DNA of 64,000 nt, taken from IMG/VR virus record IMGVR_UViG_3300005617_000382, one strand, 5' to 3'. Shown here in pieces: positions 16,633-61,596 of this stretch. The first letter of the stretch is position 1. Each line of letters starts with the position of its first letter. Both the position numbers and the translations under genes were made by a program. The DNA comes from an uncultured virus (IMG/VR IMGVR_UViG_3300005617_000382). Lineage: Duplodnaviria; Heunggongvirae; Uroviricota; Caudoviricetes. Below the pieces are notes generated by a model. That model was not told the origin of the DNA, did no database searches, and saw nothing but the letters and a program-made list of their open reading frames with translations.

Positions 16633-19600
16633 CTACGAGGCGCGCGCGGCGTCGTAGAGCTTGCGAATGTTGGGGTCGCTCTCGGTCGACTTCATGAGCG
16701 CGATCTCGTAGCTGGGCAGCTTGTGATCGTCCTGGTACTTCTCGACGGCCTTGCGAAGCTGCGCGGACGGCGCGTTGGCCAGCTCGGGGTCGTCGCCTGC
16801 GTAGCCGCGCGACTTCGTGGTGAGGCCGAGCGCGTAGTTCGCGCCCTTGAGCGCCGCCATCGCTTCCTCGTACTCGGCCGGATCGACGAACTCGGTGTTG
16901 AGCGCCTTCATGATGCGGGCACGGACGTTGCCCTTGGCGCCCTTCGCGAAGTTCGTGAGCACCTCGTCGCCGCGCTTGGCGAACGTGGCTTCGCGCTCGG
17001 CCGCTTCAGCCGCACGCTGCTTCGTGATCGCCTCGTCGGTCCGCTTGGCCATCTCGATGAGCCGGCGATCGTCGCTCTTGCGGTACACCGCGCCGTCGAT
17101 CGGTGACGTGTACACGGCTTCGTCGGCCTTCGCGATCTCGCTCAGCACGAGGTCCCTCTCGTGGCTCGACTTCGCGAGGAACGAGTCTGCCTCCGAACCG
17201 GATAGCTTCCCGAAGTGGATGCGCTGTGCATCGCTCATCGAGCTCAGCTTCTCGAGCCTGGCATTCTGCTTCTGAAGCTCCGCGATCTTGTTCTCTTGCT
17301 CGGTGGCCATTACTTGCTCCTGTGATTTCACGGTAGGGGTGGCCCCGGACCGGGGCGAATTGGCGCGCGCGGAGACAACAACCACCGACGGCGCGGCAGG
17401 TGTCGCGGGCGCAGACGGAGCCGGTGCGCCATAGAGGCTCACGCCGCAGTAACAGCAGTAGCGATCGCCTTCGTCGCACTCGGCGCCGCAGCTCGGGCAC
17501 TGCTTGCCATCGTCGTCGGCCGCTTCGGCCATCACCTCGGCCGGAACGACCTCGTCGGTGGTGTGCGTGTGGTTGGAGTCCTCGCCGATCGTGATCGCGC
17601 CGGTCGTCGCGTCGTACGTCCATGGGTGCGAGTGGCCTTGGTCGGCGCCCTCGGACGTCGCGTAGGACGTGGACAGCATCGTGGTCCACGCGTGCTCCGG
17701 GTCATCTAGGCAGATCGCGTGCTGATGCCCATCGGTGATGGACGTCAGCACGGTCATCTTCGAGACGCGGCGCTTGTAGGGCACCCACTTTTTGTCCTTG
17801 CCCTTGCCCTTGCGGCCCTTCATCAGCTCACGGATCCCGGCCCCGGCGATCGAGACGCCGTTGAACTCACCGGCGCGGACCTTCGCGAGCTGCTCCGTCG
17901 TCGGCCGAATAGCGACCATGAGGCCACTGATCTTCGTCGCGGACCCCGCAGCCTTGCCGAGCATCGCGGAAGCAATCTCGCTGTCCATCGGATACGCGAA
18001 CGCGATCCGCGACTTCTGCGCGCCGTCGTGCATCTCGTCGACGGCGCCGCCTGCCTTGACGAACTCCTCGGCTGCCCTGATGAAGTCCGGGCTCACCGCG
18101 TCGCCCTGCAGATCGTGATACGGCTGGCCGCTCTCGTCGGTGCAGGTGAACGCCCAGCAGTACAGAAGCGGATCGTCGCCCTCGCCGACCTTGACGATCC
18201 GGGCCAGCATTGCCGCCTCGACGGACTCCTGCGCACCGGCGCGCTTGATCAGTCGGATCGATGCAGTCTGCTGCGCTGGATGGTCGACAAGCGACAGGAA
18301 GTCCAGCTTCGAGAGCGTGAGCTTGAACCGAGCCGCTGGTGCCATGTCTCCGACGCTCTCGCGGGTCACCCACCCGGGGCGATTCGCAGACTTCTTCGTG
18401 CGCTTGGGCGGCTTGGCCAGCTTCGCCGGTCGCTTGTTGTACTTCGCGAGCTCCTTGATCGCGTCAGCGGTCTCCCTGATGGACTCCTTCAGGGCCTGCT
18501 GGGTGTCTTCGTCGCCGCGGAATCCCTCGTCCTCGATCGCCTGACGTGCGCTGTCGACGTCACGCTCGTAGGCGCGACGCGCGTGCGAGTACAGCGCGTC
18601 GACCTTCGGATCGGACCACTGGCCCTCGTCCTCGTCGAACGATGCCTTGCCAGCGAACTTCTCCTTGGTCCTCGCCAGAACCGCATCGTCATCGTCGGTG
18701 CTGTAGTCCTCGAGCTCCGCCGTGTCTTTCGCGTACTTCTTCGACGTGTCTTTCAGCTTGCCCAGCGCAGCAACCTGCTTCTCGTGTAGCGCCTCGAGTG
18801 CGTCCTGCGCCTCGATCGCCTTCGCATCGAACTGCTTGCGACGCTCATCACGCGCTGCGGTGTACTCCTTGGTGCTGCGCTCGTGCTCAGTCCGCCGTTG
18901 CTCGTAGTCGGCGAGGTCAGCGTCGAATTGCTCCTGCTCGTTGTCCTCGTACTGGAACCGCTCCGGCTTGTCGGCCTTGTCCCACTTGACCGGATCGCCA
19001 TCCTCGAGCTCGATCCCGAAGTCATCGAGGTTGGTTGATCTGCTGTCGGCTGCACGCTCGGCGATCGCCGCGTACTCGTCGCTCCTGTCATCGCCGTGTA
19101 GCGCGTTCGACGCCTCGCCCACGTGACCACGAAGCGCGTCGACGTCAATCTCGACATCGGCTCCGACGTCGTGCTCCTCGCTGCGGAGCGCCTCGAGCTC
19201 ATGGACCGCGGTCAGCGCCGCCTTGTGATTCGGCTCGATGTCCACTGCGATCTTCGTGATCTCGTTGTTCGCTTCGACGGCTCCCTCGCGCGCGCGGTGG
19301 ACGACGCTGGGCAGCGCGGGCACGAGGTCCGCCTTGCGCGCCTGTTGCTCCCCGATGATCTCGGCCGCAGCCGCATGCATCGCGCGCGCTCCCGCGGCCT
19401 GCGCGTCCTCGTGGCTCAGCCTGATGATCTGTCCCGAAGCGCTGTCAAGCCGCCTGCCCGCGGAGTCGGCCGCTTCCTTGAGCCGCTTGCCGTGCTCAGC
19501 GAGGAAGCTCTCGTCGGCGAGCGCGTGCTCGGGGCTCTCATGTTCCTTGCCTCCGATGCCGCCACCGCCGCTCGTGAACTTCCCGCCTTCCCCGCGCGGA

Positions 19601-19635
19601 TGCTTGTCTTCCTCGAAGTCGCCGAACCCGGCCAT
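16633..19635 (-). CDS. Multidomain head protein: acidic N-terminal region + XkdF-like prohead protease + zinc ribbon + scaffold
   Basis: 'FEEDKHPRGEGGKF' N-terminal motif; 'LSLVDHPAQ', 'YHDLQGD...EMH...GEFNGVSIAG' (XkdF-like serine peptidase); CPSC...CCYC; coiled-coil C-terminus. Confidence 0.75.
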   Translation of the reverse strand: MAGFGDFEEDKHPRGEGGKFTSGGGGIGGKEHESPEHALADESFLAEHGKRLKEAADSAGRRLDSASGQIIRLSHEDAQAAGARAMHAAAAEIIGEQQARKADLVPALPSVVHRAREGAVEANNEITKIAVDIEPNHKAALTAVHELEALRSEEHDVGADVEIDVDALRGHVGEASNALHGDDRSDEYAAIAERAADSRSTNLDDFGIELEDGDPVKWDKADKPERFQYEDNEQEQFDADLADYEQRRTEHERSTKEYTAARDERRKQFDAKAIEAQDALEALHEKQVAALGKLKDTSKKYAKDTAELEDYSTDDDDAVLARTKEKFAGKASFDEDEGQWSDPKVDALYSHARRAYERDVDSARQAIEDEGFRGDEDTQQALKESIRETADAIKELAKYNKRPAKLAKPPKRTKKSANRPGWVTRESVGDMAPAARFKLTLSKLDFLSLVDHPAQQTASIRLIKRAGAQESVEAAMLARIVKVGEGDDPLLYCWAFTCTDESGQPYHDLQGDAVSPDFIRAAEEFVKAGGAVDEMHDGAQKSRIAFAYPMDSEIASAMLGKAAGSATKISGLMVAIRPTTEQLAKVRAGEFNGVSIAGAGIRELMKGRKGKGKDKKWVPYKRRVSKMTVLTSITDGHQHAICLDDPEHAWTTMLSTSYATSEGADQGHSHPWTYDATTGAITIGEDSNHTHTTDEVVPAEVMAEAADDDGKQCPSCGAECDEGDRYCCYCGVSLYGAPAPSAPATPAAPSVVVVSARANSPRSGATPTVKSQEQVMATEQENKIAELQKQNARLEKLSSMSDAQRIHFGKLSGSEADSFLAKSSHERDLVLSEIAKADEAVYTSPIDGAVYRKSDDRRLIEMAKRTDEAITKQRAAEAAEREATFAKRGDEVLTNFAKGAKGNVRARIMKALNTEFVDPAEYEEAMAALKGANYALGLTTKSRGYAGDDPELANAPSAQLRKAVEKYQDDHKLPSYEIALMKSTESDPNIRKLYDAARAS

Positions 19636-33821: not shown

Positions 33822-34349
33822 TCACAGCTCCTCCACCTCTCCGCGCAGCTTCCAAAGCGCTCTGGTCTCAACCTGGCGCACGCGCTCCCTGGTCAGGTTG
33901 ATCCGCTCGCCGACCTCCTCGAGCGTCAGCCCTCCGTTGGCCGTAAGGCGCAGGGCACAAGGGTGCTCCAGCTCCTCGGGCTCGAGATCGGGGAAGTTCA
34001 GCTTGATCGATCCGGTGTCCGGGTTGACGTCTAGATACAGGTGATGCTTACAGGAAACCCATGCGCATGGTCCGGTGCGCTCAGAGCACTCGCCCCAAGT
34101 TCGCGGGCGATCGGTTAATGCGGCGAAATCCTCGTCGGTCAGGAGTGCCGCCTGCGACCGAAGGTACTCGCGAGTCAGATGCTTCGTCGCGGTCGTTAGT
34201 CCGCGGCGTCCGAGCCGTGGACGTGAGGAGCGATCCGGGCGGCCGAGGCAATCGGCGTGCGCTCGGCTACCGTCGGGCGCGACGGCGTGCATGCCACGGA
34301 AGGGCTGCGAGCAGATGGAACATCGCGGGCGCGTGCGTGCGTCGATCAC
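33822..34349 (-). CDS. Sigma-70 region-4-like HTH regulator with Cys/His-rich N-terminal domain
   Basis: 'RPRTWGEC...[31 protein letters not shown]...CAL...[28 protein letters not shown]'; resembles a myxobacterial family from recall. Confidence 0.8.
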
Positions 34350-34588
34350 GGTCGCCACCCTTCGCGCAGGCGCTGGGCGGCTTCGGCGGACCGGTACACC
34401 ATGCCCGCTCCGTGTTTTCTGACCGCCTGTCTTGCAAGCACTGCCAAGCCGTGCGAGCTCGCCGTGACCCCAAGGTCGAAGCGCAGTAACACCAACCGAG
34501 TCGAGACGTCCCACGCAGCCTGACTCGCGTACACATCGAGCAACTGAACCGCCTCGTCGACGGTGCCCTTGGAGTAGCGGGGTTTCAT
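34346..34588 (-). CDS. Hypothetical protein, paralog of 48051-48299
   Basis: MKPRYSK...EA...AEA...GWRP. Confidence 0.5.
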   Translation of the reverse strand: MKPRYSKGTVDEAVQLLDVYASQAAWDVSTRLVLLRFDLGVTASSHGLAVLARQAVRKHGAGMVYRSAEAAQRLREGWRP

Positions 34589-35052
34589 GGTGTCCTCGTC
34601 GGTTGCGGGTCCTCGTGTCGCTCGTCGGTTGCGTGCTCGCAGTTCCTGACGGCGTTGTTCCAGCAACCAGCGCCGCACAGGTTGCACATCGCACCACTGC
34701 ACATCGGACAGTCGGGCCCCGGGCACTCGGGTTCCAGCGGAACTATCATCGCTTGTCCTCCGCCTGCTCAAGGCAGGACTTCGCTGCAGCCTCGTCGATC
34801 GCCGCGGTCAACGCGTCACGCAGCGCGATGGCGCGCTTGATGCTGAACACCCACTCCTCGCCGCCAAGGTCGAGGAGGACGCGCCAGCCGCGGCCGTAGT
34901 TCTCGGTGAAGGCTCTCATCTGGTCGCTCCGATTGCCCGCGACCTCGACGCTCGTTCGTCAGTCCTCGTCAGTCGGTGCTTGGACTTGCTGACGAGGAGT
35001 TGACGACGCCAGAATTTCTGCTTGGCCCTGGCGGCGGCTACCGGCTTCCGGA

Positions 35053-40458: not shown

Positions 40459-40863
40459 TCACGCGGCGCCTCGTGGACGCAGCAGGGCATCCTGCGCCTT
40501 GCGCTTGGCGTCACGCGCGTTGAGTTCTTCGTTGCGCTTCGCCTGGCGTTCGGCGAGCTCAGCTCGGTCAAGCTTCAGACAGGCCGGACACAGGTCGTGG
40601 GCCGTGGTGCGCAGTCGGCCCGCGCGCTCGGGCTTCGCTGGCCGGGCTCGCTCGATCGCCCTGCCAGATGCGTCGCGGATCGTCTCGGTGGCCGGCTCGG
40701 CTGGCCGGTAATCCTGGCCCGGATCGGATCCGCGCCCCCATCCGAGCTTGGCGAACCACTTGCGATTCTCGCGGCGACCACACATCGCGGTCTGCACCGT
40801 GGCGCCGCACCGGTTGCAGGTCAGCTTGACGCCGTATTCTCGAGGAAGAACTGTTGCCGTCAT
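40459..40863 (-). CDS. Hypothetical zinc-binding protein
   Basis: CNRCG...LGW...HDLCPAC. Confidence 0.45.
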   Translation of the reverse strand: MTATVLPREYGVKLTCNRCGATVQTAMCGRRENRKWFAKLGWGRGSDPGQDYRPAEPATETIRDASGRAIERARPAKPERAGRLRTTAHDLCPACLKLDRAELAERQAKRNEELNARDAKRKAQDALLRPRGAA

Positions 40864-41402
40864 AGCTTCGTCCACAGTCTCGACGGTTGCGGCATCGGGT
40901 CTCTTGCCAGCTGACCGTAGGTCGTCGTCTCCTTGGTGGCATATCGACGCTCCACCGGTCCGCTCACCGTGTGATAGGTGAGCTGACCGATCTTGATACC
41001 GGCGTAGATCCTGACCGGCTGGACCGTGGTGATCTCCATCGTCCAGTGGTTGCAGAATCCGACGTCACCGCGGCCGGCAGTAGCGTGGATCGAGATACCG
41101 AGTCGTCCGATGCTCGAGCGGCCATCAAGGTACGGCACATGCTGATGTGTCTCGGTGTACTCGACCGTGGAGCCGAGGTAGAGGGTACCCGGCATAAGTA
41201 CGAGTCCGGTGTCCGGTATGGTGATGTCGATTGTCTTGTGCTCGCGAGCGCAGTCGATCACGACTGCTGTGTCGTACACGCGCAGCACTGGACCGAGGCG
41301 CACGTCATAACTGTTGCCCCCGAGTGATGTGATATCGAACGGGTCAATCACGATGTGCCCGTGCTTGATGTGACCAAGGATCTCGGTGTCGCTAAGAATC
41401 AC
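40860..41402 (-). CDS. dcd: dCTP deaminase
   Basis: 'ILSD..I', 'NSYDVRLG', 'GRSSIGRLG', 'GDVGF...WTMEI', 'IGQL'. Confidence 0.9.
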   Translation of the reverse strand: MILSDTEILGHIKHGHIVIDPFDITSLGGNSYDVRLGPVLRVYDTAVVIDCAREHKTIDITIPDTGLVLMPGTLYLGSTVEYTETHQHVPYLDGRSSIGRLGISIHATAGRGDVGFCNHWTMEITTVQPVRIYAGIKIGQLTYHTVSGPVERRYATKETTTYGQLARDPMPQPSRLWTKL

Positions 41403-42037
41403 GTTGGCTTCCTTCCGATAATGGAGCGAAGTTCTTCGTTGGTGGCGTGTTCGACTGCCAGGTATTTCCGCGCCCAGGAGAGCAACGCCGGAACGTCCAT
41501 TAGGCGGATGGAGTCGCGCTTCGACTTCAGCGGACAGATGGCGCACGTGAGCGCACCGGTCTCGTCGATGTAACGGGCGGTGTTACCGCACGAGCAGGTC
41601 ATGCAGCCTCGCTTCCATTCCTGATGTCCACAGTCACCGCTCGACTCGGCTCCACTGCCTCCGCCGCACCCGGAGTCCTCGCCGCGAGCTCGGTCCGGCA
41701 CGCCGGGCAGGTGTTGTGCGGCAGCCTGTCGTAGGCAGATAGGTCGACCGTCGCGACGCACACGGCGACGTAGTCGATGGCATCGCAGCACAGGGTGGTG
41801 ATGCGGCCGCCGGGATACGCTTGGCGGAGGACGTGCCATGCGTTGGGGAGGGTGAAGTGGATGAGGGTGATGGTCATGGCTTCCCCTCGTACTTAAGTCC
41901 GCCAATAGCCGCCGCCGTCAGCAGCACCCCGAACCCAGCGATACCGATCACAACGGTCCAGCTACCGACGAGCCACAGCACAGTGACCAGAGCGACCAGC
42001 AGGGAGGCGAAGAGGAGGAGCATGAGGAGGTCGAGGC

Positions 42038-43287: not shown

Positions 43288-43893
43288 TCACGCTACCACC
43301 TCCGTTCCGAACGGACGCACGAACTCGACGATTCGGAACAGCTCATCCCAGCTGTTCGTCGACCACCCGTTCCATCGGTCACGGCGGTTGTGCGGCGTCT
43401 GCCACTGCACCGCGGTTCCGGTCGGGTGGTGCTCGAGCCACTTCGCTAGCGTCTCGGTGCGATCGTCGACGAACACGTCACCAACGCAGATGTGCTTAGC
43501 AGCGGTGAAGACGATGTCGTGATGGCCGATGTCGAAGTGGCGTTTGAGCCAAGCCTTGCGGTCGAACTCCCACGTCTCGTTGCTATCCCAGCTCGACGTA
43601 ACCACGTAGATCTCGGCGATCTCGCGAATGCGACGCACGCCATCTACGGCCCCGGGATACACGTTCAAGTTGGCAGCGAGCCGCGGCGTTCTACCGATGC
43701 TTCGCTTCACCGCGGAAGCCTGATCCGGTGTCAGCTTCAGCGCTGCGGCGAAGCTGAATTCGGTGACGTCGTCGACGGTGTAAGACGTTTCCAGAATCGA
43801 GTTAATGAGCGGCATGACGCCACCCATGAAATCAGAGAGAACGCCGTCGCAGTCCAGTAGCACGCGTGCGGTCACAGGAAATCTCCTCATCAA
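43288..43893 (-). CDS. 5'(3')-deoxyribonucleotidase (HAD, NT5C-like)
   Basis: 'LLDCDGVLSDF', 'YVVTS', 'KAWLKRHF', 'K...GDVFVDD', 'PHNR'. Confidence 0.85.
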   Translation of the reverse strand: MMRRFPVTARVLLDCDGVLSDFMGGVMPLINSILETSYTVDDVTEFSFAAALKLTPDQASAVKRSIGRTPRLAANLNVYPGAVDGVRRIREIAEIYVVTSSWDSNETWEFDRKAWLKRHFDIGHHDIVFTAAKHICVGDVFVDDRTETLAKWLEHHPTGTAVQWQTPHNRRDRWNGWSTNSWDELFRIVEFVRPFGTEVVA

Positions 43894-44154
43894 AGAATCG
43901 TTACCCGCCGCCCTCGGTCGCAGTCGCAGGTCAGAGTCGTCGACGCTGGATCTCCATCGCCGTCGCCCGTCCCGCGTCGAGCACTTCGATCACCTCGGAG
44001 TCGGTCACCGGCCGGTTGCCGTCGTCGCGGACCCACAGGCAATCGCCGTAGAGCGCTACGGTGTAGACGCGAGCGCGGCGCCACCACGAACGATCGGTGA
44101 CGGTGGCGATCTGGAGCGAGGCGTCCTGGAAGGCGACGGAGATGGAGCGACGGT

Positions 44155-44922
44155 TCAACATCTCGCCACTCCGGATTCGCGGGAGTGTCCACCGACGAGG
44201 ACACTGTTCGAGTGTTCGGATTGTGCGTGGGGTATTTGGTAGTTATCGCTGGCTCCGTGAAACTCTTGCTCCTCGTCGCTGCCGGCTCTGCTGTCCTCTA
44301 CGCGCTCGCACGCGTCATCTGGCAGGGTGGCGACGCTGAGCTCGGCGCGGGGCTCGCGGTTCTGACAGCTGCGGTCTGCACCGGGAGCGCTGGTGTTATC
44401 GAGGCGATCGACAGGGCGAGACCGAAGGTCGTGAGCAGCGACAACGGGGCGAGGAAGGATGGCGGGGGGTCGTGAATACTTCGGTCTTTTTTTGCCGGTG
44501 TTCCCGTGAGGTGGGCTCTTGTCGCGCACGATTGCGCGCCACGTTCTGTCGGCCGCGTCTTCGTCGTTTGGGCCAGGTAGACCGAGGTCGGCGAGTAGCC
44601 GACAGTCGTTCCCTCGGTGGGCCGGCGCCCGTCGGTTGTACTCAGGACGGAACGCTCGAATCAGCGCTCCTTCGTAGGATTCCATGACGTCCGGATGGAG
44701 TTCGATGTGAAGCGCGCGGTCGAATACCTTAGGTTCCCTGTCGAAGCTGTAACTGTCGATGGCTCCGCATTCGTGCTGGAAAATTCTCAGGTCAACATCG
44801 TTGGAGGAGCCGATGTAGACGACGGAACCATTGAGGATGAGCAGGTACACGCCGGACCTAGCGGCGGTTTTGCTGAGTTCAACTTCTCTCGCGCGCTGTG
44901 CGATGAACTCGAGGGCGTTCAT
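44155..44922 (-). CDS. GIY-YIG domain protein
   Basis: 'SGVYLL...VVYIGSS..V..RI..H...E..LIR.FRPEYN'. Confidence 0.7.
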   Translation of the reverse strand: MNALEFIAQRAREVELSKTAARSGVYLLILNGSVVYIGSSNDVDLRIFQHECGAIDSYSFDREPKVFDRALHIELHPDVMESYEGALIRAFRPEYNRRAPAHRGNDCRLLADLGLPGPNDEDAADRTWRAIVRDKSPPHGNTGKKRPKYSRPPAILPRPVVAAHDLRSRPVDRLDNTSAPGADRSCQNREPRAELSVATLPDDACERVEDSRAGSDEEQEFHGASDNYQIPHAQSEHSNSVLVGGHSRESGVARC

Positions 44923-45152
44923 GCGGCCCATCCGTTCAGCTCGGCAACCGACACACCGAGCTGCCTAGCGAGGTCGGACTGGATCCCAGGTGACGGGATC
45001 CGTGTGCCCTTACGCCAGTGGTAGATGGTGCTGCGGTTCGCGCCAAGCCGCTCCGAGAGCACCTCTACGTCGAGATCGACCGCATCCATTAGGGCGCAGA
45101 TACGTTGCCCCCACGCAGTTTTGTCGCGCTTGGGGCGACGCCGTTTTGTCAT
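44919..45152 (-). CDS. Cro-like HTH regulator
   Basis: 'LSERLGANRSTIYHWRKGTRIPS...LARQLGVSVAEL' (HTH_3-type). Confidence 0.8.
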   Translation of the reverse strand: MTKRRRPKRDKTAWGQRICALMDAVDLDVEVLSERLGANRSTIYHWRKGTRIPSPGIQSDLARQLGVSVAELNGWAA

Positions 45153-45159
45153 CCTATAC

Positions 45160-45176
45160 GTCTACGTCTTGTAGAC
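45160..45176. promoter_or_regulatory. Operator O1 (GTCTAC-N5-GTAGAC)
   Basis: Palindrome between cro and repressor, overlapping a putative minus-strand promoter (TTGACG 45187-45182). Confidence 0.7.
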
Positions 45177-45238
45177 GCCGCCGTCAATCACCGTCTACGA
45201 GAAGTCTCTAACTATGCGTGTTAGCAAGGTGAACCCAG

Positions 45239-45607
45239 ATGGCCAGCCCACGACATCACAAGCCGTATCCTCGTGGCGACCGCAACCAGATGACACCGGA
45301 GTGGAAGGATAAGGTACGCGCTGCGTTGAAAACGCGCGGAGTGAGCGAGCAGTGGCTGGCGGATCAGATCGCCAAGCGACGCGGTCGCGTCATGAAGCGC
45401 GACACCGTTAACAAGTTGTTGCGCAAGCAGCAGTCCAGCGCGCTTGTGCCTGACATTTGCGCAATCCTTGGCCTCCCACCACCGATGGTCTCCACTCCCG
45501 ATGAGGACAGCGGGCGAGCGCTGGAGCGCATCATGGCCGCATCACCAGAAAAACGTGCCGCGATCCTGCTCCTGTTGGAAGACAACAAAGACGATTCCAG
45601 CCGGTAA
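45239..45607 (+). CDS. Repressor-like HTH protein
   Basis: Divergent from cro; 'VRAALKTRGVSEQWLADQI...RDTVNKLL...SS.LVPDIC.ILG'. Confidence 0.65.
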   Translation: MASPRHHKPYPRGDRNQMTPEWKDKVRAALKTRGVSEQWLADQIAKRRGRVMKRDTVNKLLRKQQSSALVPDICAILGLPPPMVSTPDEDSGRALERIMAASPEKRAAILLLLEDNKDDSSR

Positions 45608-45786
45608 TAGTTTCTGGTATTAGCTGTCAGATGGGACGTCGAGGCCGTGTCAAGCAGCGTGTGCAGTCCACTCGGGACAACGATCGCTTACGCTGCTTGC
45701 TGCTGCGCCTGATCCGAGATGACCGTCCGGCCTTCGATGCTCTGGACCGCCTGGTCAGCCGAGCAGTTCCTAGGCCTTGCGCGAAA

Positions 45787-45803
45787 GTCTACAACTCGTA
45801 GAC
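45787..45803. promoter_or_regulatory. Operator O2 (GTCTAC-N5-GTAGAC)
   Basis: Same palindrome as O1, upstream of the early operon. Confidence 0.7.
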
Positions 45804-45827
45804 GATTCCCCTTGCGTTCGAGAAGCT

Positions 45828-45844
45828 GTCTACGCATAGTAGAC
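45828..45844. promoter_or_regulatory. Operator O3 overlapping the early-operon promoter
   Basis: GTCTAC-GCATA-GTAGAC overlaps TTGCGT-N17-CATAGT-N6-ATG(45847). Confidence 0.7.
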
Positions 45845-45846
45845 GC

Positions 45847-46809
45847 ATGCTCAACGTCTCCCTCCTCGCCGCGCCGCCCGTAGCAGCGCTCGCCATTTAC
45901 GATTCTCTCGTCGCACTCGGCCTCGGCACCATCGGTGCCTGGACCGACTGCGCTCGGCGGCTCGACCTCGCTGCAGCCGAGGCGAAGCACGCTGCTCAGG
46001 CCAGGAAGATGCGCGCTCGCGCGGATGACTGCCGGGCCAGGGCAAGGCGGATGGTTGTGGTGGAGGTGGTGCTGTGATCCCGACGGCGGAGCAAATCCTC
46101 GCTGCAGCAAACGGTGACCGTGAGTTCGAAGACGCCATCGAGCGTGCTGTTCGGATTCAGAACGCTGGCGAGGACGCCGGACTGACCGAGTCGTCCATCG
46201 CCGCTCTGATCACGGCAGACCGGCTTCGCATCGAACTGCAGGGTATCCGCGAGGATCTCCAGGACCTGCGTCAGGCGGTGCGGTCGTGACCTCGTCGGTG
46301 ACTCGCGACGAGGCCCTCGTCGATCTGTACCGCGACGTGCTGAAGATGAAGCAGGATGATCGCGCTCCGGTGTCTCCGGCCGGAACGCCCGGCACCGGCC
46401 GTAGCTGCAAGCCGAACCGCTTAGTGCCGTCGAAGCGCATCAAGGCGCTGCATCGGTCACGCGGTGACGGCGTCTCGCTCAAGGCGTTCGCGCGCTCGAT
46501 CGTTCACAACCTGAACTCGCATTCCGCGGACGACAAGATCGCAGCGGTGCGCTGGCTTTCGACGAAGGGAGCACGGCCGTGACTACCCGCCAGCTGACTG
46601 CAGCACAGGAAGGCGCGATCGATCCGGTCCTACATCTCGAGAGCAAGCCGGGTCGGTCGTACTGCGGTCGCAACCTGCCGACTGCCGGATTCTTCACCGA
46701 CAACGAGGCGATGTTCGAGGAGCGCGAGGGATCCCGCTGCAAGGTGTGCTGGCGAGTCCTGCAGTGCAGGGCCGAAGCCAAGGCGGCGGTGGCCGCGGCG
46801 TTGTCCTGA
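45847..46809 (+). CDS. Four small coupled early ORFs (45847-46077, 46074-46289, 46286-46582, 46579-46809)
   Basis: GTGA-type start/stop overlaps; no motif recognised. Confidence 0.45.
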
Positions 46810-46883
46810 GCCGTTCCCGGAGCGCTCTCGCAGAGCGTTGCGACAACGGCTCAGGGCAACGACCTAAGGGGAGGTCAAAGACA

Positions 46884-47150
46884 ATGGAAAAACTTCAAGC
46901 ACTGCTCACTGCGTTTGCCGACCTCGGCGCCACCAGCGCGACGCTTGGCACCAACTACGTTCACGTGGCCGTCAGGTCGGACGACGCGCTCAAGCTGATT
47001 GCGCGCCAGCTCGCTGTCACGCCGGAGTCTCGGGCGGACGGCAACGAGCACTGGTTGTCGATCACGGCACGCCACGACGGGACCTCTCTGTACGTCACGG
47101 GTCCGATGCGCGCGATGCCTGCCGCAGCCCTCAGGCCGGAGGGCGCCTAA
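46884..47150 (+). CDS. Hypothetical protein
   Basis: RBS GGAGG upstream. Confidence 0.5.
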   Translation: MEKLQALLTAFADLGATSATLGTNYVHVAVRSDDALKLIARQLAVTPESRADGNEHWLSITARHDGTSLYVTGPMRAMPAAALRPEGA

Positions 47151-47152
47151 CC

Positions 47153-47851
47153 ATGACCTCCATCATCAAACTCCACCCAGACGATGAGCCTCGCACTGTC
47201 ACCGCGGGCTACTACTTCCCGCCGGCTCGCCCGACCACCGTTCCTCCGGCTCATCTCTGCGAACGTGAGGATCTGCAGGACGTAGCTGCCGGCGCGGCCC
47301 AGCACCACGATCAGCTCTGGGCCCTGCTCGGATCCAGCGAGCACGTCAAGGCAATCTGCCGCGACTACGCCGAGAGCGAGTATCGGCACGCACGTGAGCT
47401 GCTCACGCTGCAGAGGCAGCTCGCTGCAGCGCAGGGCGTGTGCTTCGCGCTGCAGGCGAAGCTCGAAGCGAACCGCAACGCATCCCGCGTGCTCGTGGCG
47501 CAGCGCGACCGGATGGCACTGGATGCCGGGTCTCAGCGCGCCGAGAACGCATCGCTCCGCCGCGAGCTCACTGCCGCGCTCACCCCGCGGCTAACCGCAT
47601 CGTTCGAGCGGCTCACGCTAACGGTCACCGGTGAGAGCTACGCCGTCGTGGCGCACCGGCTGACCGCGGCCGTGTATGCGGTGGATGAGAAGTTCGATCA
47701 GAGCGAGGCCATCGACGTTCCGCAGGTGGACGGCAAGCCGCTGGTCGAAATGCCGGACGTTCACAGCGAGCCGACACAGAGCGGTCCGGTGGTTGATCCG
47801 GATCAGACACTCGACATGGAACCAGAGGAAGAAGAGGGAGGTGAAGGGTGA
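47153..47851 (+). CDS. Hypothetical coiled-coil protein
   Basis: 232 aa with an acidic tail. Confidence 0.5.
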   Translation: MTSIIKLHPDDEPRTVTAGYYFPPARPTTVPPAHLCEREDLQDVAAGAAQHHDQLWALLGSSEHVKAICRDYAESEYRHARELLTLQRQLAAAQGVCFALQAKLEANRNASRVLVAQRDRMALDAGSQRAENASLRRELTAALTPRLTASFERLTLTVTGESYAVVAHRLTAAVYAVDEKFDQSEAIDVPQVDGKPLVEMPDVHSEPTQSGPVVDPDQTLDMEPEEEEGGEG

Positions 47852-48050
47852 GCGAGACTGCTACCACCCTCCCCCTCTCCGACCACGAGATCGCCATCGC
47901 GTTCGCCCAGTTCCCGGAGACCTGGTCGCTCGTCCGCGCCTGCCGAGAGCTGGTCGTGCTGCGCCAGCTGCGCGGCGTGGTGCAGGAGATGCTGGCTGAC
48001 AGGCGGATGGATCTTGGTGACTACAAGCAGAGACTCGAGGAGTTGGTGAG

Positions 48051-48299
48051 ATGAAGAAGCGATACAGCAAGAAGGTGCGCGAAGAAGCGGCGCTGATCTG
48101 CGCAATCGCGGCGAGCGGTGGCTGGAAGTCGATGGAGTGGTCCTACGGATCGGCCGCCAGCGCCCTCGGCATACGAAGCGAGACCGCTATCTCACTCGCA
48201 TGGAACGCGTGGATGACGCTTAGCGATTCGTACGGACAGACTGACCGAGAACGTGACGCCGAAGCCGAAGCCCTCATCCGCACCGGATGGTCGCCATGA
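48051..48299 (+). CDS. Hypothetical protein, paralog of 34346-34588
   Basis: MKKRYSK...EA...AEAE...GWSP. Confidence 0.5.
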   Translation: MKKRYSKKVREEAALICAIAASGGWKSMEWSYGSAASALGIRSETAISLAWNAWMTLSDSYGQTDRERDAEAEALIRTGWSP

Positions 48300-48493
48300 C
48301 CACGATGATCTTCCTCTCCGGCTGGCTCTGCGGCGCCCTGACGATCGCCGTCATCCGCTACGCAATCGGTCCGCTCCACGAGCACCGGGCCAGATTGCTC
48401 GATTTCCCGCATCGGCCGTGGTCCGCCGGCAGTGTTCTGCCGTCCCCCTGTTCTGCGGCCGATGCGGGGCCATCAACCAGGAGGACAGTGTGA
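48296..48493 (+). CDS. Small protein with N-terminal hydrophobic helix
   Basis: Coupled to the first RiPP-like gene (GTGA). Confidence 0.4.
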   Translation: MTTMIFLSGWLCGALTIAVIRYAIGPLHEHRARLLDFPHRPWSAGSVLPSPCSAADAGPSTRRTV

Positions 48494-48642
48494 GGAGAAA
48501 ACTGAAACTGGATAGCCAGATGATTCGCCATCTTCGGACTCTGGATCTCCGCGATGTCGTCGGCGGAGTCGTCATCGACACCTGGACGAACCCGATCCCG
48601 GACTCGTTCAAGCCGTGTTGGCCGGATACGCCACCGCGCTGA
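48490..48642 (+). CDS. RiPP precursor-like peptide 1 (double-Gly leader)
   Basis: MRRKLKLDSQMIRHLRTLDLRDVVGG|VVIDTWTNPIPDSFKPCWPDTPPR; RBS AGGAGG. Confidence 0.7.
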   Translation: MRRKLKLDSQMIRHLRTLDLRDVVGGVVIDTWTNPIPDSFKPCWPDTPPR

Positions 48643-48649
48643 GAGCACC

Positions 48650-48808
48650 ATGAAGCGAACCAACAACAAGCGAATCACCCTCGCACGCGAGACGGTCAGA
48701 GTCGTCGCCGGGCTGGAGCTCGTCGTCGGCGGGGGGCAGACCGATGTCGATACGAGGCCCGAGAAGTCGACATGCTGGCCGCCACCCGTGAAGGGTGGTG
48801 AAGGATGA
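48650..48808 (+). CDS. RiPP precursor-like peptide 2
   Basis: MKRTNNKRITLARETVRVVAGLELVVGG|GQTDVDTRPEKSTCWPPPVKGGEG. Confidence 0.7.
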   Translation: MKRTNNKRITLARETVRVVAGLELVVGGGQTDVDTRPEKSTCWPPPVKGGEG

Positions 48809-48999
48809 AGAGGCTCAAGCTCAGACGGGAGACCGTCCGCTTGCTCAAGGATGTCAGCCTACATCTGGCACAAGGGGGGCTCCCCGGAACCGGAAGCCCC
48901 ACGCTCTGCCACTGCACTGAAGACCCCTGCCTCCCCGGTGGGACGTTCTCCTGCGCAACGTGCCAGGCGAATAGCAACTGCGGCTGCACCTACGACTAG
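48805..48999 (+). CDS. RiPP (lanthipeptide-like) precursor 3
   Basis: MKRLKLRRETVRLLKDVSLHLAQGG|LPGTGSPTLCHCTEDPCLPGGTFSCATCQANSNCGCTYD (7 Cys, 9 Ser/Thr in core). Confidence 0.8.
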   Translation: MKRLKLRRETVRLLKDVSLHLAQGGLPGTGSPTLCHCTEDPCLPGGTFSCATCQANSNCGCTYD

Positions 49000-49037
49000 C
49001 GCGGAAAGCGATCTTTACCGCCACGTTCTGAGGACAA

Positions 49038-49238
49038 ATGAAGCGAACCAACAGGCGACTCACCATCTCACGAGAGACGATTCGCGGTTTGACCGACCTG
49101 ACAGTCGTGCATGGCGGACTCGGGGATAGCGACAATCAGATCTGCTCCGAGGCCGGCGCCTGCACGCAGGGCTGCAGAACCCAGGGTCAAGGCACGACCT
49201 GCCCGCGATTCACTTGCCTGAATACCTGCACGGGCTGA
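49038..49238 (+). CDS. RiPP (lanthipeptide-like) precursor 4
   Basis: MKRTNRRLTISRETIRGLTDLTVVHGG|LGDSDNQICSEAGACTQGCRTQGQGTTCPRFTCLNTCTG (6 Cys, 9 Ser/Thr in core). Confidence 0.8.
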   Translation: MKRTNRRLTISRETIRGLTDLTVVHGGLGDSDNQICSEAGACTQGCRTQGQGTTCPRFTCLNTCTG

Positions 49239-49318
49239 GCACTCCGCGAACAGCAGTAGGCCTCGCCGTCGGGCTGGCGACCCAGATGTGCACCGAGAGC
49301 TACCCGGAAAACAAAACC

Positions 49319-49621
49319 ATGGCAAAGACCGAACACAGAGTCAGCGTCGACAGCGGCAAGTACACGTTCGTGGTACCCGCCGACGACTACCGCGTGAGCA
49401 TCTTGCGCTACGGAGAGCCGTGGCACGGCCCCCAGGGCGAGGCGTCGAAGGCATTGCACGCGATCATGTGCGAGCTCGACGCGGCGCGAGTGGTGCTCGC
49501 GGAAGTACGCGCGCTCACGGCGAGCTGGCGAGCTGGCGCGCAAGCTCGCCTCGAAGACGCGCTCCGCAAGCATGACGCCCTCGTCTCCGACAACACGCCC
49601 CCCAGCGAGTGGACTCGCTGA
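49319..49621 (+). CDS. Hypothetical protein
   Basis: 'DSGKYTF......SILRYGEPW' recurrent phage motif. Confidence 0.5.
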   Translation: MAKTEHRVSVDSGKYTFVVPADDYRVSILRYGEPWHGPQGEASKALHAIMCELDAARVVLAEVRALTASWRAGAQARLEDALRKHDALVSDNTPPSEWTR

Positions 49622-49623
49622 GC

Positions 49624-50781
49624 ATGGCCACTCAGCTCTACACCTCATCGCGACTTCGCGTCATGCGCTCTTGCCTGCGCCTGCATTTCTATCGCTACGT
49701 GCTCGGCATCATGACTCCGCCGAACGACACAATGCGGTTCGGTACGGTCGGTCACTCGGCGCTCGAGGCGTATTTCAAGGCGTGGATAGCATACAACACC
49801 GAGGCTGCGCTGTGGGCACGTGCTCGGACCGAGCAGACCGACGGAGGGCGGCCGCCCGATCCACGACTTCCAGCCGCGCTCTCAGTCGTCGACCAGTCTG
49901 GCCTCTCCCCATGGGATCGCATCAAGCTGTCCATGCTCGTCCGCGCCTACGATGCGCGCTGGGGTGGCGAGGACTGGGAAGTCATCGCCGTCGAGCAGGA
50001 GTTCCGATACTTCCTCGGCGAGGTAGAGATCGGTGGAAAGATCGACGTCATCATCCGCGATCGCAAGGATGACCGCGTCTACGTCGTGGAGCACAAGACG
50101 ACCGGTGTGGATGCCAGCCTGGGGGGCGCGTACTGGGAAAAGCTGACCATCGACACCCAGGTTTCGATCTACATCGACGGCGCTGGCATGCTCGGCTACG
50201 ACGTCGCCGGCTGCATCTACGATGTGCTCGTCCGCCCCAAGCATGAGCCCAAGCTGGCTACTCCTCTCGACAAGCGCGAGTACACAAAGGGTAAGGGGTG
50301 CAAGGGGTGCGGCGGCTCAGGCGGCGGAAAGGCTGGCATCGTCCAGGGGCGCGGCTATTACATCGTAAACTTCACGAGCGTTGAGCAGATACCGTGCACT
50401 GGATGCGACGGCACAGGCTGGCTCAAAGACGCCGCTGGCGTACCTCAGGCGCCGCGGCTCCACGCGAACCAGCGCGACTCCGATGAGACGTCCGAGGCGT
50501 TCGAGGAGCGGTTGGTCGAAGCGATCGCGGATGCGCCCGACGCGTTTCTTCTGCGCGGTGTGGTCGTACGGCTCGAGCACGAGTTGCCCGGGATGCGCCA
50601 GGACCTGCTCGATCAGATCGCTGTCGAGCAAACCGGCCTGACTCCGCGGAACCCTGACAGCTGTTCGCGCTACGGCGTGCTGTGCCCGATGTTCGATGTG
50701 TGCGCCGGCCGCGCCAGCATCGACGACCTGGAACGCTTCCCCCGCGGTCGAGTTCATCCCGAGCTCGATGTTGCGGCCTGA
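49624..50781 (+). CDS. PD-(D/E)XK exonuclease (RecB/Cas4-like)
   Basis: 'SCLRL..YRY', 'FGTVGH..LE', 'VEQEF', 'GKIDVI...VVEHKT', 'Q...Y', C-terminal C...CP..DVC. Confidence 0.85.
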   Translation: MATQLYTSSRLRVMRSCLRLHFYRYVLGIMTPPNDTMRFGTVGHSALEAYFKAWIAYNTEAALWARARTEQTDGGRPPDPRLPAALSVVDQSGLSPWDRIKLSMLVRAYDARWGGEDWEVIAVEQEFRYFLGEVEIGGKIDVIIRDRKDDRVYVVEHKTTGVDASLGGAYWEKLTIDTQVSIYIDGAGMLGYDVAGCIYDVLVRPKHEPKLATPLDKREYTKGKGCKGCGGSGGGKAGIVQGRGYYIVNFTSVEQIPCTGCDGTGWLKDAAGVPQAPRLHANQRDSDETSEAFEERLVEAIADAPDAFLLRGVVVRLEHELPGMRQDLLDQIAVEQTGLTPRNPDSCSRYGVLCPMFDVCAGRASIDDLERFPRGRVHPELDVAA

Positions 50782-50810
50782 CACCTGACGAGCGAAAGAG
50801 GCTCACGACA

Positions 50811-51962
50811 ATGGCAACACCGACACCAACTCCAGTACCCAAGCCAGCCGACAACGGCGTTGCTCCGGCTCCGGCCCAAGCCGTTCGCCCGGCGCCCGCC
50901 GCGCCACGACCAGTCTCCGCGCTTCCAACGCGCCCACCAGCTGCGCCGGTCAAGCCGAAGTCCCGGCTCGGCCAGGTCCAGCGCGGCATTCAGCGCGTTC
51001 CGCTGCGCCACCTGTTCTACGGGCCGCGCGGCGTCGGCAAGACGTCACTCGGCGCCGACGCCCCCAACCCGCTGTTCATCGACGTCGAAGGCGGATCGCT
51101 GACGTTCAACGCCACGCGATACACGTTCCGCGACGAGCCCGGCGGACACGTGCCGAGAACCTACGAGGAATTCCTCACCGCGATCGACGACCTGATCGCG
51201 AATCCAGGGCACGGGTACTTGTCGCTGGTAATCGACACCATGGATGCGCTCGAGACCTTGATCCATGAGTACATCTGCCGCCGAGACGGCAAGGCGAACA
51301 TCGAGGCCTACGGATACGGCAAGGGCTACAAGATTCCGCTCGTCGAGATTCGCGTCCTGCTCGAGCGTTTCGACCGCATCATCCATTCGGGGGTTGCAAT
51401 CATCATCCTGGCCCACTCCGACGAGAAGACGTACAAGAACCCGCGAGGCCCCGATTACGATCGATTCAAGGCGCAGCTCAACGAGATCGCCTGGGGGAAG
51501 TTCGCGGCGTGGTGCGACGTCTGCGGTTTCATCAACTTCGAAGGCGGCGGCGCCGCGCTCAAGGGCGACGAATCTCAGGCCAAGCGCGCACGGGGTTGGT
51601 CCACAGGCCGGAGGATGATCCAGCTGACGCCGGACGCTGCCGCGCCTGATGTGAAGTGCCGGCTGGCGCTGCCGACCGAGCTTGAGCTCGGCGAAGCGCA
51701 CCCGTGGGCTCCGTTCGCCAGTGCGAAGCTCAAGGCCGAGGAAGCCACCGTCGAGACGCTCACCGTCGACATTCTTGCCGAGGTCGACCGCATCACCGGT
51801 GGTGACCACGCCGTCGAGTTCACCACCGATGCCGGAACGAAGACATCACACGCCGCGATCCTCGATCTCGCCACCAACAGTGACGCGAGCGTGCTCTCGC
51901 GTGTGCTCGCCGGCCTGAAGGCCACCGCTCCAATCGTCGCAACCCAGGAGACCACGCCATGA
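50811..51962 (+). CDS. AAA_24 / Sak4-like ATPase (ssDNA annealing)
   Basis: 'FYGPRGVGKTS', 'FIDVEGG', 'LVIDTMD.LE', 'IE.YGYGKGY', 'ILAH', 'WCD..GF'. Confidence 0.85.
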   Translation: MATPTPTPVPKPADNGVAPAPAQAVRPAPAAPRPVSALPTRPPAAPVKPKSRLGQVQRGIQRVPLRHLFYGPRGVGKTSLGADAPNPLFIDVEGGSLTFNATRYTFRDEPGGHVPRTYEEFLTAIDDLIANPGHGYLSLVIDTMDALETLIHEYICRRDGKANIEAYGYGKGYKIPLVEIRVLLERFDRIIHSGVAIIILAHSDEKTYKNPRGPDYDRFKAQLNEIAWGKFAAWCDVCGFINFEGGGAALKGDESQAKRARGWSTGRRMIQLTPDAAAPDVKCRLALPTELELGEAHPWAPFASAKLKAEEATVETLTVDILAEVDRITGGDHAVEFTTDAGTKTSHAAILDLATNSDASVLSRVLAGLKATAPIVATQETTP

Positions 51963-54476: not shown

Positions 54477-54808
54477 TCATCACCCTCGCCACCATCCGCG
54501 GACCGGTCAGCGTCGACGCCACAGTCACCGGTGAGTGGGCCAGCCATCGCGATCCATTCGACACTGGCATCGCCGGTCCGCACGAGCGCTGGACGGTGAC
54601 CCACGTCCCGACCGGTCTTCGTATTCCGCGTCTTCTGACCAGCAAGAGAGCTCGCGACCTGGCTGAGCGACTGTCGAAGGAGGTGCCGACGCTGGGTGTC
54701 CCGGCAACGATAGTACCGACCAGGCAGGTCAGGGTCGACGACCTCGGACCGGGATACGCAGCAGTCCTCGCGCGTCTGACCGGAATCGTCGACGAGGTGT
54801 GCACATGA
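54473..54808 (+). CDS. Hypothetical protein
   Basis: 'WTVTHVPTG' recurrent phage motif. Confidence 0.5.
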   Translation: MIITLATIRGPVSVDATVTGEWASHRDPFDTGIAGPHERWTVTHVPTGLRIPRLLTSKRARDLAERLSKEVPTLGVPATIVPTRQVRVDDLGPGYAAVLARLTGIVDEVCT

Positions 54809-55323
54809 CACTCGACGACTACCACATCAAGCACGCGCTTAAGGTCGCATCGCGTTCGCCGTGCCGAAGTAAGCGCGGCGTGGTGCTATTCAACGCTACG
54901 ACTGGAGCGCACCGCGGCGAGGGCCATAACGGACCGCCGTCGCCGTTGACCTGCCCGGGTCGAGAGCGCTGCGCCGGTACGTGCGGTCAGCGGTCTGTGC
55001 ACGCAGAGATGCGGGCGCTGCGCGATGCCGAAGGCTATCGCCGATATCACGAAACCGGACCATACGAGCTACTTCACGTCGAACTCGCGCCAGATGGCGG
55101 TGTCGTCGCCTGCAGCGGTCCGAGCTGCTGGCAGTGCGCGAGGGAGATTCTTGACGTCGGCTTCATCGATGGTGTGTGGCTGTACGAGCGAGCCGGATGT
55201 CCACACTGCGAGGCCGGTGAAGTAGCCCAGGACAAGCAATGTCCGCGCGGATCCGGCGGCTGGCGCCGCTACACCGCCGAAGAGTTCTACCGCGTCACGC
55301 TCGTCAACTGCGGAATCACATGA
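54805..55323 (+). CDS. Zinc-dependent cytidine/dCMP deaminase-like protein
   Basis: 'SPCRSKRGVV', 'GHNGPP', 'HAE', 'SCWQC'. Confidence 0.75.
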   Translation: MTLDDYHIKHALKVASRSPCRSKRGVVLFNATTGAHRGEGHNGPPSPLTCPGRERCAGTCGQRSVHAEMRALRDAEGYRRYHETGPYELLHVELAPDGGVVACSGPSCWQCAREILDVGFIDGVWLYERAGCPHCEAGEVAQDKQCPRGSGGWRRYTAEEFYRVTLVNCGIT

Positions 55324-56193: not shown

Positions 56194-57237
56194 ATGCGAA
56201 CCACCCCACGTATCAACGGTCCCTACAAGCACGGTCGAAAGTGGCGCGTCCAGTTCACTACAGGAAGCGGCAGAGATCGGTCGACGACATACAAGGTCTT
56301 TGATACGCGCGCAGCGGCGGAGGCTTGCGTCGACGGCGCTCGGGACGAAGCGCAAGGCGTCACGGTGAAGATGGCCGTTGACCAGTGGCTGACCGAGAAG
56401 CGTGCCGCTGGCTTGGCCGACGTCACGATCGCGGGCTACCGGGCACGACTGACGGCGCTGCTGGGGCCAGCGCTGAGCCGACCGCTGCGCTACGTGCGGA
56501 CCCGCGGCGCAGAGCTCTACATCGGCGTGCTCAACGGCCGGCGCCCCGACACGCATCAGCACGCGCTCGTGATCGGCGGCATGTGGGGCCGCTGGTGCGT
56601 GAAGCGCAAGCTGCTCAAGGAGAACCCGTTCGCCGACGTCGACCCGGTCGGCCGCAAGACGCTCGGCGCCGACAAATCGCGGCTCACTGTGGACGAGTCG
56701 CGCATTCTCTACGGCTGGTGTCTCGAGCAGCCGGACAACGCTGATGCGATCCTGACGCTGGGCTACCTGCTGCTCGGCTCGCGCGCATCGGAGCTGACGA
56801 AACGCGACGTCCGTGACCTGGACGACAGCGGCCGGATGCTGTGGATTCGCGCAACCAAGACTGCCGCGGGTCGCCGTCGCCTGATCGTGCCACCCGAGCT
56901 GGTGCCACTGCTACTCGGCCTGTGCGGCGATCGCAGGCCTGACGCACCGATCTTCGCGCACCCTGATGGGTCCCGCTGGACACGACAGCTCGCGCGCCGC
57001 AAGGTGATGTCGTGCTGCAAGGCCGCTGGCGTTCCGGTGCTGCCACCCCAGGCGCTGCGCAGGACGCAGGCCACGCTCGCGACCGAAGCAGGCGAGACGG
57101 CTCTCGCGGTGGCGTACCACCTCGGCCAGGCCGTCAAAGCGGCGCCTGCTGTTACTACGAGGTCGTACATTGGACGGGACGCGGCGCAAGAAGCGACGGC
57201 GCATCGGGCGAGGAAGTCGATTCAGGGGCTGAACTGA
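56194..57237 (+). CDS. int: Tyrosine recombinase / integrase
   Basis: 'NPFADV', R in 'GSRASEL', K in 'TKT', 'QALRR' (HxxR variant), 'HLGQ', Y in 'TTRSY'. Confidence 0.85.
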   Translation: MRTTPRINGPYKHGRKWRVQFTTGSGRDRSTTYKVFDTRAAAEACVDGARDEAQGVTVKMAVDQWLTEKRAAGLADVTIAGYRARLTALLGPALSRPLRYVRTRGAELYIGVLNGRRPDTHQHALVIGGMWGRWCVKRKLLKENPFADVDPVGRKTLGADKSRLTVDESRILYGWCLEQPDNADAILTLGYLLLGSRASELTKRDVRDLDDSGRMLWIRATKTAAGRRRLIVPPELVPLLLGLCGDRRPDAPIFAHPDGSRWTRQLARRKVMSCCKAAGVPVLPPQALRRTQATLATEAGETALAVAYHLGQAVKAAPAVTTRSYIGRDAAQEATAHRARKSIQGLN

Positions 57238-61429: not shown

Positions 61430-61500
61430 CGCAATGTTGCCCCATGGTGGGGCGACGGTCTTGTAAACCGTAGGGGCTGGTTCAATTCCAGCACTAAGCG
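61430..61500 (+). tRNA. tRNA-Thr(TGT)-like, degenerate acceptor stem
   Basis: D arm GCCCC/GGGGC, anticodon arm ACGGT-CTTGTAA-ACCGT, T arm GCTGG-TTCAATT-CCAGC; three mismatches in the acceptor stem. Confidence 0.6.
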
Positions 61501-61524: not shown

Positions 61525-61593
61525 TGCAGGGAGAGGCAGACTCAACCGCGGCTCATAACCCCGGTTCTGCCGGTGCGACTCCGGCCCCTGCTA
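61525..61593 (+). tRNA. tRNA-Met(CAT), initiator-like, atypical
   Basis: Acceptor TGCAGGG/CCCTGCT (1:72 mismatch), anticodon loop CTCATAA, T arm GCCGG-TGCGACT-CCGGC, short D arm; no encoded CCA. Confidence 0.6.
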
Positions 61594-61596
61594 CGA

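Follow-up and report, generated by a model that had tools for sequence, protein, structure and literature searches.

The phage DNA analysed here, a stretch of 64,000 nucleotides that we call the window, carries a compact array of four small genes. Profile comparisons indicate homology between the leader of the encoded peptides and the LxLx(K/R)x5L...GG leader found in class I lanthipeptide precursors (NF038153, PF28317). Genes of this kind, unaccompanied by the enzymes, occur in phages of several lineages. We favour, with a probability of roughly 0.55, the reading that the genes are precursor cassettes whose products host enzymes would mature and export in trans.

The array encodes four double-glycine peptides with unrelated cores

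The array consists of four tightly packed ORFs on the + strand (positions 48490-49238) that encode peptides of 50, 52, 64 and 66 aa. Peptide 1 (48490..48642, +) begins with a GTG codon, 5 nt upstream of which a ribosome-binding site, GGAGGA, can be read in the sequence (48480..48485, +). It comprises a leader of 26 aa and a core of 24 aa with the motifs IDTWTNP and CWPD. Peptide 2 (48650..48808, +) follows after 7 nt and has a 28-aa leader and a 24-aa core containing CWPPP. The ATG of peptide 3 (48805..48999, +; 25-aa leader, 39-aa core) overlaps the stop codon of peptide 2 (ATGA), and peptide 4 (49038..49238, +; 27-aa leader, 39-aa core) begins after a gap of 38 nt. The first 16 nt of the peptide 4 gene are identical to those of the peptide 2 gene. 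The leaders are basic, 25-28 aa long and end in Gly-Gly in all four peptides, and the cores are unrelated. Each core combines Cys with Ser/Thr, as ring formation needs, the numbers in peptides 1 to 4 being 1, 1, 7 and 6 for Cys and 4, 4, 9 and 9 for Ser plus Thr. Peptides 1 and 2, which share CWP, could form at most one ring each, since each has a single Cys. The preliminary description of this DNA had given these ORF sizes, the common Gly-Gly leader, the unrelated cores, the CWP motif and the Cys and Ser/Thr counts, and every countable detail was reproduced. Its reading of the layout as that of RiPP precursors also held, a conserved leader, a Gly-Gly site and Cys/Ser/Thr cores all being present.

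Alignments and residue positions placed the LxLx(K/R)x5L motif and the Gly-Gly leader end in the peptides, with peptide 1 the most divergent, and the best-conserved part of the leader was its N-terminal half, LxLxRETxRxL. At the cleavage site, position -4 is V or A and position -7 is L in all four peptides; D stands at -8 and L at -12 in two of the four each. For C39 peptidases, the recognition pattern described (Bobeica et al. 2019, PMC6363468) has L(-12), E(-8), L(-7) and V(-4) ahead of a Gly-Gly site, and the residues at -4 and -7 would fit it. C39 recognition does not require the N-terminal half of the leader, whose conservation suggests another binding partner.

Natural variants indicate that the genes are real and constrained

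A variant roughly 95% identical was found on contigs of sequencing runs X4 and X5, which come from two studies sharing one year and habitat. Among the 40 substitutions listed of a total of 72, the peptide codons hold 10 synonymous and 5 non-synonymous changes, the latter being D19E, T10N, V16I, R36K and R12S. Peptide 1 of the variant shows D19E and one synonymous change. In peptide 2, seven codons are changed synonymously and three conservatively, and its core accounts for four of the synonymous changes and one R-to-K replacement. The indels among those listed lie in the spacer after peptide 4, outside the four ORFs. Peptide 3 is exactly missing from the variant: position 48803 is joined to 49039 with 5 letters between, leaving an overlapping stop and start between peptides 2 and 4. 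Copy number, which the preliminary description had proposed to compare among related phages, is thus variable in nature. Elsewhere, the sequence P0003 keeps the core of peptide 2 unchanged and has five substitutions in the leader, and the relative P0006 retains the C-terminal core of peptide 3. The four genes are real and under constraint.

The X4 variant contig also has 690 other letters in place of 11 bases at window positions 47851-47863, which is the second such cassette-like change within this operon.

The leader is related to that of class I lanthipeptide precursors

None of the NCBIfam and Pfam models matched the four peptides even at E<=10 (the Pfam set scanned lacked PF28317), so the link to lanthipeptides is made by profile only; neither the curated cut-off of NF038153 nor any match to TIGR04149, a model for radical-SAM-modified RiPPs, was reached by the four. 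A profile of nine phage-type peptides was searched against 1.84 billion representative sequences and recovered 1443 proteins at E<=1e-3. The relatives inspected are about 45-90 aa long, with the leader pattern MKKTxKKLxLxRETLRxL...VxGG ahead of a core rich in Cys, Ser and Thr. The core motifs seen in peptides 1 and 2 (IDTWTNP, CWPDP/CWPPP) also occur among them, including in many non-phage members of this wider family. NF038153 (lant_leader_L1a, 'class I lanthipeptide') matched 30 of the 35 relatives scanned at E<=1, 14 of them above the 22-bit cut-off; the two phage-type proteins are among the five that it did not match. PF28317 was present on 29 of 114 relatives from a second search; two carry the NCBI name 'class I lanthipeptide' and come from Phycisphaerae and Thermoanaerobaculia MAGs. 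The leads obtained from the ESM Atlas were all under 0.9, one being a cluster in which 63% of the members carry PF28317.

Comparison of seven phage peptides with 12 NF038153-positive peptides by hhalign gave a probability of 98.35% (E 1.1e-14) over 30 leader columns, the 12 peptides having originally been recovered with a profile that contained phage peptides. An independent leader HMM was built from these 12 non-phage peptides, each of which passes the NF038153 cut-off, and was used to search 5422 six-frame segments taken from the window and from two related phages described below, C867 and G032. The top seven matches were exactly the four peptides of the window, the one of C867 and the two of G032, and the eighth match had an E-value of 0.09. 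Within the window, the E-values were 4e-5, 2e-7, 3e-7 and 3e-9 for peptides 1 to 4. A leader with LxLxKx5L and Gly-Gly has been described in class I LanAs of Bacteroidetes, whose clusters often encode a C39 protease (Walker et al. 2020, PMC7268733). The resemblance to lanthipeptide leaders that the preliminary description had pointed out was therefore upheld by the hhalign comparison, by the relatives matching NF038153 and PF28317, by the 12-peptide HMM and by homologues that adjoin LanC and LanB.

These homologues came from cellular genomes. Of 300 further genomes sampled from the phylum to which the MAG that holds C867 (G001) belongs, with at most 21 candidates scored per genome, two contained family members: G170 (public) and G039 (unpublished). 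In G170, LanC (143090-144199, 135 bits) and LanB (144391-146334, 527 bits) come immediately after two tandem peptides (C33:142453-142804). G039 contributes two further peptide loci with adjacent LanC and LanB, so that these enzymes adjoin the peptides at all three cellular loci examined. The preliminary description had made its case depend on an association of leader homologues with RiPP enzymes, and the association is present in these cellular genomes. The C39 exporter of both G170 and G039 lies on a different contig from the peptide-LanC-LanB cluster, and its separation from LanA-LanC-LanB in G170 suggests that export is a separate module. A scan of metagenomes added five loci of 1.3-2.4 kb, too short for neighbouring genes.

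Several phage lineages carry such peptides without enzymes

No LanB, LanC, LanM, radical-SAM, YcaO or C39 protein was detected among 84 ORFs of the window scanned with PHROGs and 49 scanned with Pfam; the 64-kb window covers all but about 6.4 kb of the source contig of about 70.4 kb. Pfam scans of 87 ORFs of C867 and 102 ORFs of G032 contained no RiPP enzymes. LanC and LanB searches were negative in C867, in G032 and in the viral genomes G037, G038, G337, G338, G339, G340 and G341, and the same searches were positive in G170 and G039 at 135-566 bits. C39 (PF03412) had no match in G001 including C867, nor in G032, G037 and G038, and Radical_SAM had none in Pfam scans of the window, C867, G032 and G038. 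The lack of cognate enzymes that the preliminary description had remarked on is therefore confirmed for the ORFs scanned in the window and extends to related complete genomes.

C867 is a related phage of 91.7 kb with a capsid protein 72% identical to that of the window, and is taken to be circular because of a 141-nt terminal overlap. It encodes one leader peptide (L002:1489-1653), at a map position different from that of the window array and 12 nt after a gene for a 1132-aa Ser/Thr kinase-WD40 protein (L014:7572-10967, +). Kinases dehydrate Ser/Thr in the synthesis of class III/IV lanthipeptides; no lyase or cyclase domain was seen in the kinase-WD40 protein. The next gene after the peptide gene is a convergent Amidase_2 lysin gene. 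G032 (83.7 kb, with terminal repeats, complete by CheckV; capsid 57% identical) encodes two leader peptides, about 1.1 kb from a homologue of the window gene at 49319-49621. Pentapeptide-repeat proteins and a HAMP-domain protein are also encoded in C867 and G032 (L005:12772-13740, +; L028:12012-12752, -; L006:4156-5091, +; L028:17269-18321, -).

Two pattern scans of IMG/VR, giving 4 and 25 loci, yielded 2 and 5 loci with such peptides, of which those of G037 and G341, one from each scan, are weak. G038, an unrelated myovirus of 118.7 kb (49% GC), encodes five to six scattered peptides that have the same leader type and Cys-rich cores (L045-L051; at about 12268-12620, 99130-99363, 110961-111412 and 116064-116279, -). 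Three peptides were found in G337 and one each in G339, G340, G341, G338 and G037. In the six of these seven genomes that were compared (G037, G337, G338, G339, G340 and G341), no capsid like that of the window was found. Five unrelated complete viral genomes (CheckV 100%) carry such peptides without LanC or LanB. A scan of viral contigs for 'LNRETIRA' gave 14 pattern matches and no relative.

The array lies in a temperate siphophage near recombination genes

The window (65% GC) encodes tail proteins, a tape measure, a major head protein, a portal, a large terminase, a primase and a helicase. Because these structural and replication genes are accompanied by recombination genes and by a tyrosine integrase (56194..57237, +; PHROGs/Pfam), which marks temperate phages, its gene content identifies it as a temperate siphophage. 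Metagenome runs from soil and rhizosphere contain this DNA. Among 50,697 records of cultured phages, no DNA match and no credible protein match to the window was found; two protein matches at E 0.9 were antisense to annotated genes and were taken as chance.

Directly upstream of the array, a 68-aa ORF (48287..48493, +; GC3 0.80) has a hydrophobic N-terminal stretch, and its stop codon overlaps the start of peptide 1 (GTGA). It had no family match in PHROGs or Pfam and no homologue in C867 or G032. The ORF, which is translationally coupled to peptide 1, could be an immunity-like membrane protein and may belong to the peptide system. Downstream, the gene at 49319..49621 (+; phrog_3052), homologues of which are 58% identical in C867 and G032, serves as a synteny anchor. 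It is followed, in the same + strand block as the array, by recombination genes for a PD-(D/E)XK exonuclease and a Sak4-like AAA_24 protein (49609..51962, +). The operon had been described as repressor-controlled, a claim that our analysis did not support: its sole sign was a weak HTH_32 match in 45239-45607 (E 0.0058, below the cut-off), and a search of 43500-50000 revealed no promoter-like site. No match to Rfam attained the gathering score of its family.

Several other features of these phages were recorded. A related phage fragment (L011), whose exonuclease is 64% identical, encodes small Cys-rich proteins upstream of the exonuclease (574-885, +; 17-466, +), roughly at the position of the window array; one has a lipoprotein-like signal, and there are no Gly-Gly leader peptides. 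The window has tRNA genes for Thr (TGT) and Met (CAT) at 61430-61499 and 61525-61594 (+). A 1000-aa protein of the head region (16633-19635, -) contains an XkdF-like protease segment and also matches a methyltransferase-like PHROG, and a phage protein with sigma-70 region 4 (33822-34697, -) is a possible phage sigma factor. Genes for a dCTP deaminase-like protein, an NT5C nucleotidase and a dCMP deaminase-like protein (40860-41546 and 43288-43893, -; 54799-55323, +) hint at altered nucleotide pools or modified DNA.

The relatives of the capsid are metagenomic contigs of phage size, of which one is named: the MAG G001, holding C867, is labelled Mycobacterium sp., and this label may reflect binning only. 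G001 had no LanC, LanB or C39 match, and no family member was found in 30 of its relatives. No support emerged for a host in the Myxococcota, in which the preliminary description had proposed to search.

Discussion

The four genes resemble class I lanthipeptide (LanA) precursors in having a basic LxLx(K/R)x5L leader, a Gly-Gly site and a payload core, and we propose that the phage contributes the substrates only. After infection, or in the lysogen, the leader would be bound by a host dehydratase and cyclase (LanB/LanC), which would join Ser/Thr and Cys residues of the core into thioether rings. Cleavage behind Gly-Gly, and export, would fall to a C39-peptidase ABC exporter of the host. A host pathway already tolerant of many precursors would in this way gain new products from the phage, and the benefit could lie in action against competitors or against other phages. 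Host enzyme action, ring formation, product export and any biological role are inferences. The preliminary description had likewise inferred use of host modification and export machinery, for antimicrobials or signals, and its interpretation is supported in part.

The peptides might instead be unmodified double-glycine peptides, bacteriocin-like or acting as signals, which a host C39 exporter would only cut and export and whose cross-links, if any, would be disulfides. The residues before the Gly-Gly end, V/A at -4 and L at -7, would fit the C39 pattern as described, the exporter of G170 is on a contig separate from LanA-LanC-LanB, and peptides 1 and 2 have a single Cys each, all of which would agree with such peptides. 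However, C39 recognition does not call for the leader half that is best conserved, LxLxRETxRxL, homologous leaders adjoin LanC and LanB, and there was no match to Bacteriocin_IIc. We therefore regard unmodified peptides as unlikely.

The preliminary description had also raised the possibility that the phage makes decoys. Here the peptides would occupy the leader-binding site of an anti-phage lanthipeptide pathway of the host and thereby block that pathway. Anti-phage class I lanthipeptide clusters are reported in Actinobacteria (Shomar et al. 2024, bioRxiv 10.1101/2024.06.26.600839). The location of the array among early or recombination genes and the presence of such genes in several phage lineages would also suit a decoy. 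It is the cores that are conserved, however, and the leaders that vary, whereas a decoy has no need of a conserved core; moreover, the core motifs IDTWTNP and CWPDP are common to many non-phage members of the family. The conserved cores thus favour a working product over a pure leader decoy, which fits these data poorly and seems to us quite unlikely.

Maturation of the precursors by host LanB and LanC is also to be weighed against modification by another class of host RiPP enzyme that uses the same leader type, for example a radical-SAM enzyme as for TIGR04149. Family members match this model, two tandem-fused ones above its 25-bit cut-off, and since the leader type scores for it, another enzyme class could be the partner. 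In nearly all members, however, NF038153 outscores TIGR04149, and it is LanC and LanB that adjoin the peptides at the three cellular loci, which makes such a partner distinctly improbable. Finally, functionless passengers acquired from a host chromosome might vary in position and number between related phages and lose a gene in a natural variant, as was seen, but most of the changes listed (40 of 72 substitutions) are synonymous, the genes have start-stop overlaps and a strong ribosome-binding site, and they recur in unrelated complete phage genomes, so that this explanation is very unlikely indeed.

If host enzymes do mature the phage precursors, phages would spread and diversify peptide natural products without moving large enzyme genes, the chemical output of a host would depend on the phage it carries, and genome miners would have reason to search viral contigs for precursors. 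A broader proposal, which we advance as speculation and think rather improbable, is that enzyme-less lanthipeptide precursors represent a general strategy of several phage lineages to reprogramme a peptide-modifying pathway of the host, with products that serve the phage. Were it true, it would be the first example of a natural-product pathway whose substrate comes from a virus and whose enzymes come from the host. Possible uses would be the exclusion of other phages, the killing of uninfected competitors of the lysogen and the diversion of an anti-phage lanthipeptide pathway of the host. The system is easily testable, with short peptides and a cognate-type LanB/LanC pair available from cellular genomes that have the same leader, and it offers a concrete test of lanthipeptide pathways as a battleground between phage and host.

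Parts of this picture are already known. Precursors with an LxLxKx5L...GG leader and precursors encoded far from their enzymes have been described (PMC7268733), as have complete, prophage-borne lanthipeptide clusters that act against phages (bioRxiv 10.1101/2024.06.26.600839). Full-text searches, mainly of non-subscription journals, brought up no paper about precursors that phages carry without the enzymes. The closest relatives are the class I lanthipeptide precursors (NF038153, PF28317, PMC7268733), which, as described there, have the same leader motif, Gly-Gly end, hypervariable Cys/Ser/Thr cores and tandem arrangement. Unlike these, the present peptides are encoded by phages without LanB, LanC or a C39 exporter, score below the curated HMMs and have R for K in the motif. 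The C39 double-glycine substrates as described (PMC6363468) would share the Gly-Gly site with hydrophobic residues at -4 and -7 (and -12); the present peptides differ in having a conserved N-terminal leader half and no exporter in the phage. Lanthiphages (bioRxiv 10.1101/2024.06.26.600839) likewise involve class I lanthipeptides in phage-host conflict, with some clusters on prophages. By that account, however, theirs are complete clusters with enzymes, in Actinobacteria. The prochlorosins of marine cyanobacteria, which are class II, are similar in that diverse precursors are encoded far from one tolerant synthetase, ProcM, according to the account in PMC7268733. They differ in having a Nif11 leader, another enzyme class, and precursors and enzyme that are both chromosomal in the same cell, whereas in the arrangement proposed here the substrate and the enzyme would sit in different genomes.
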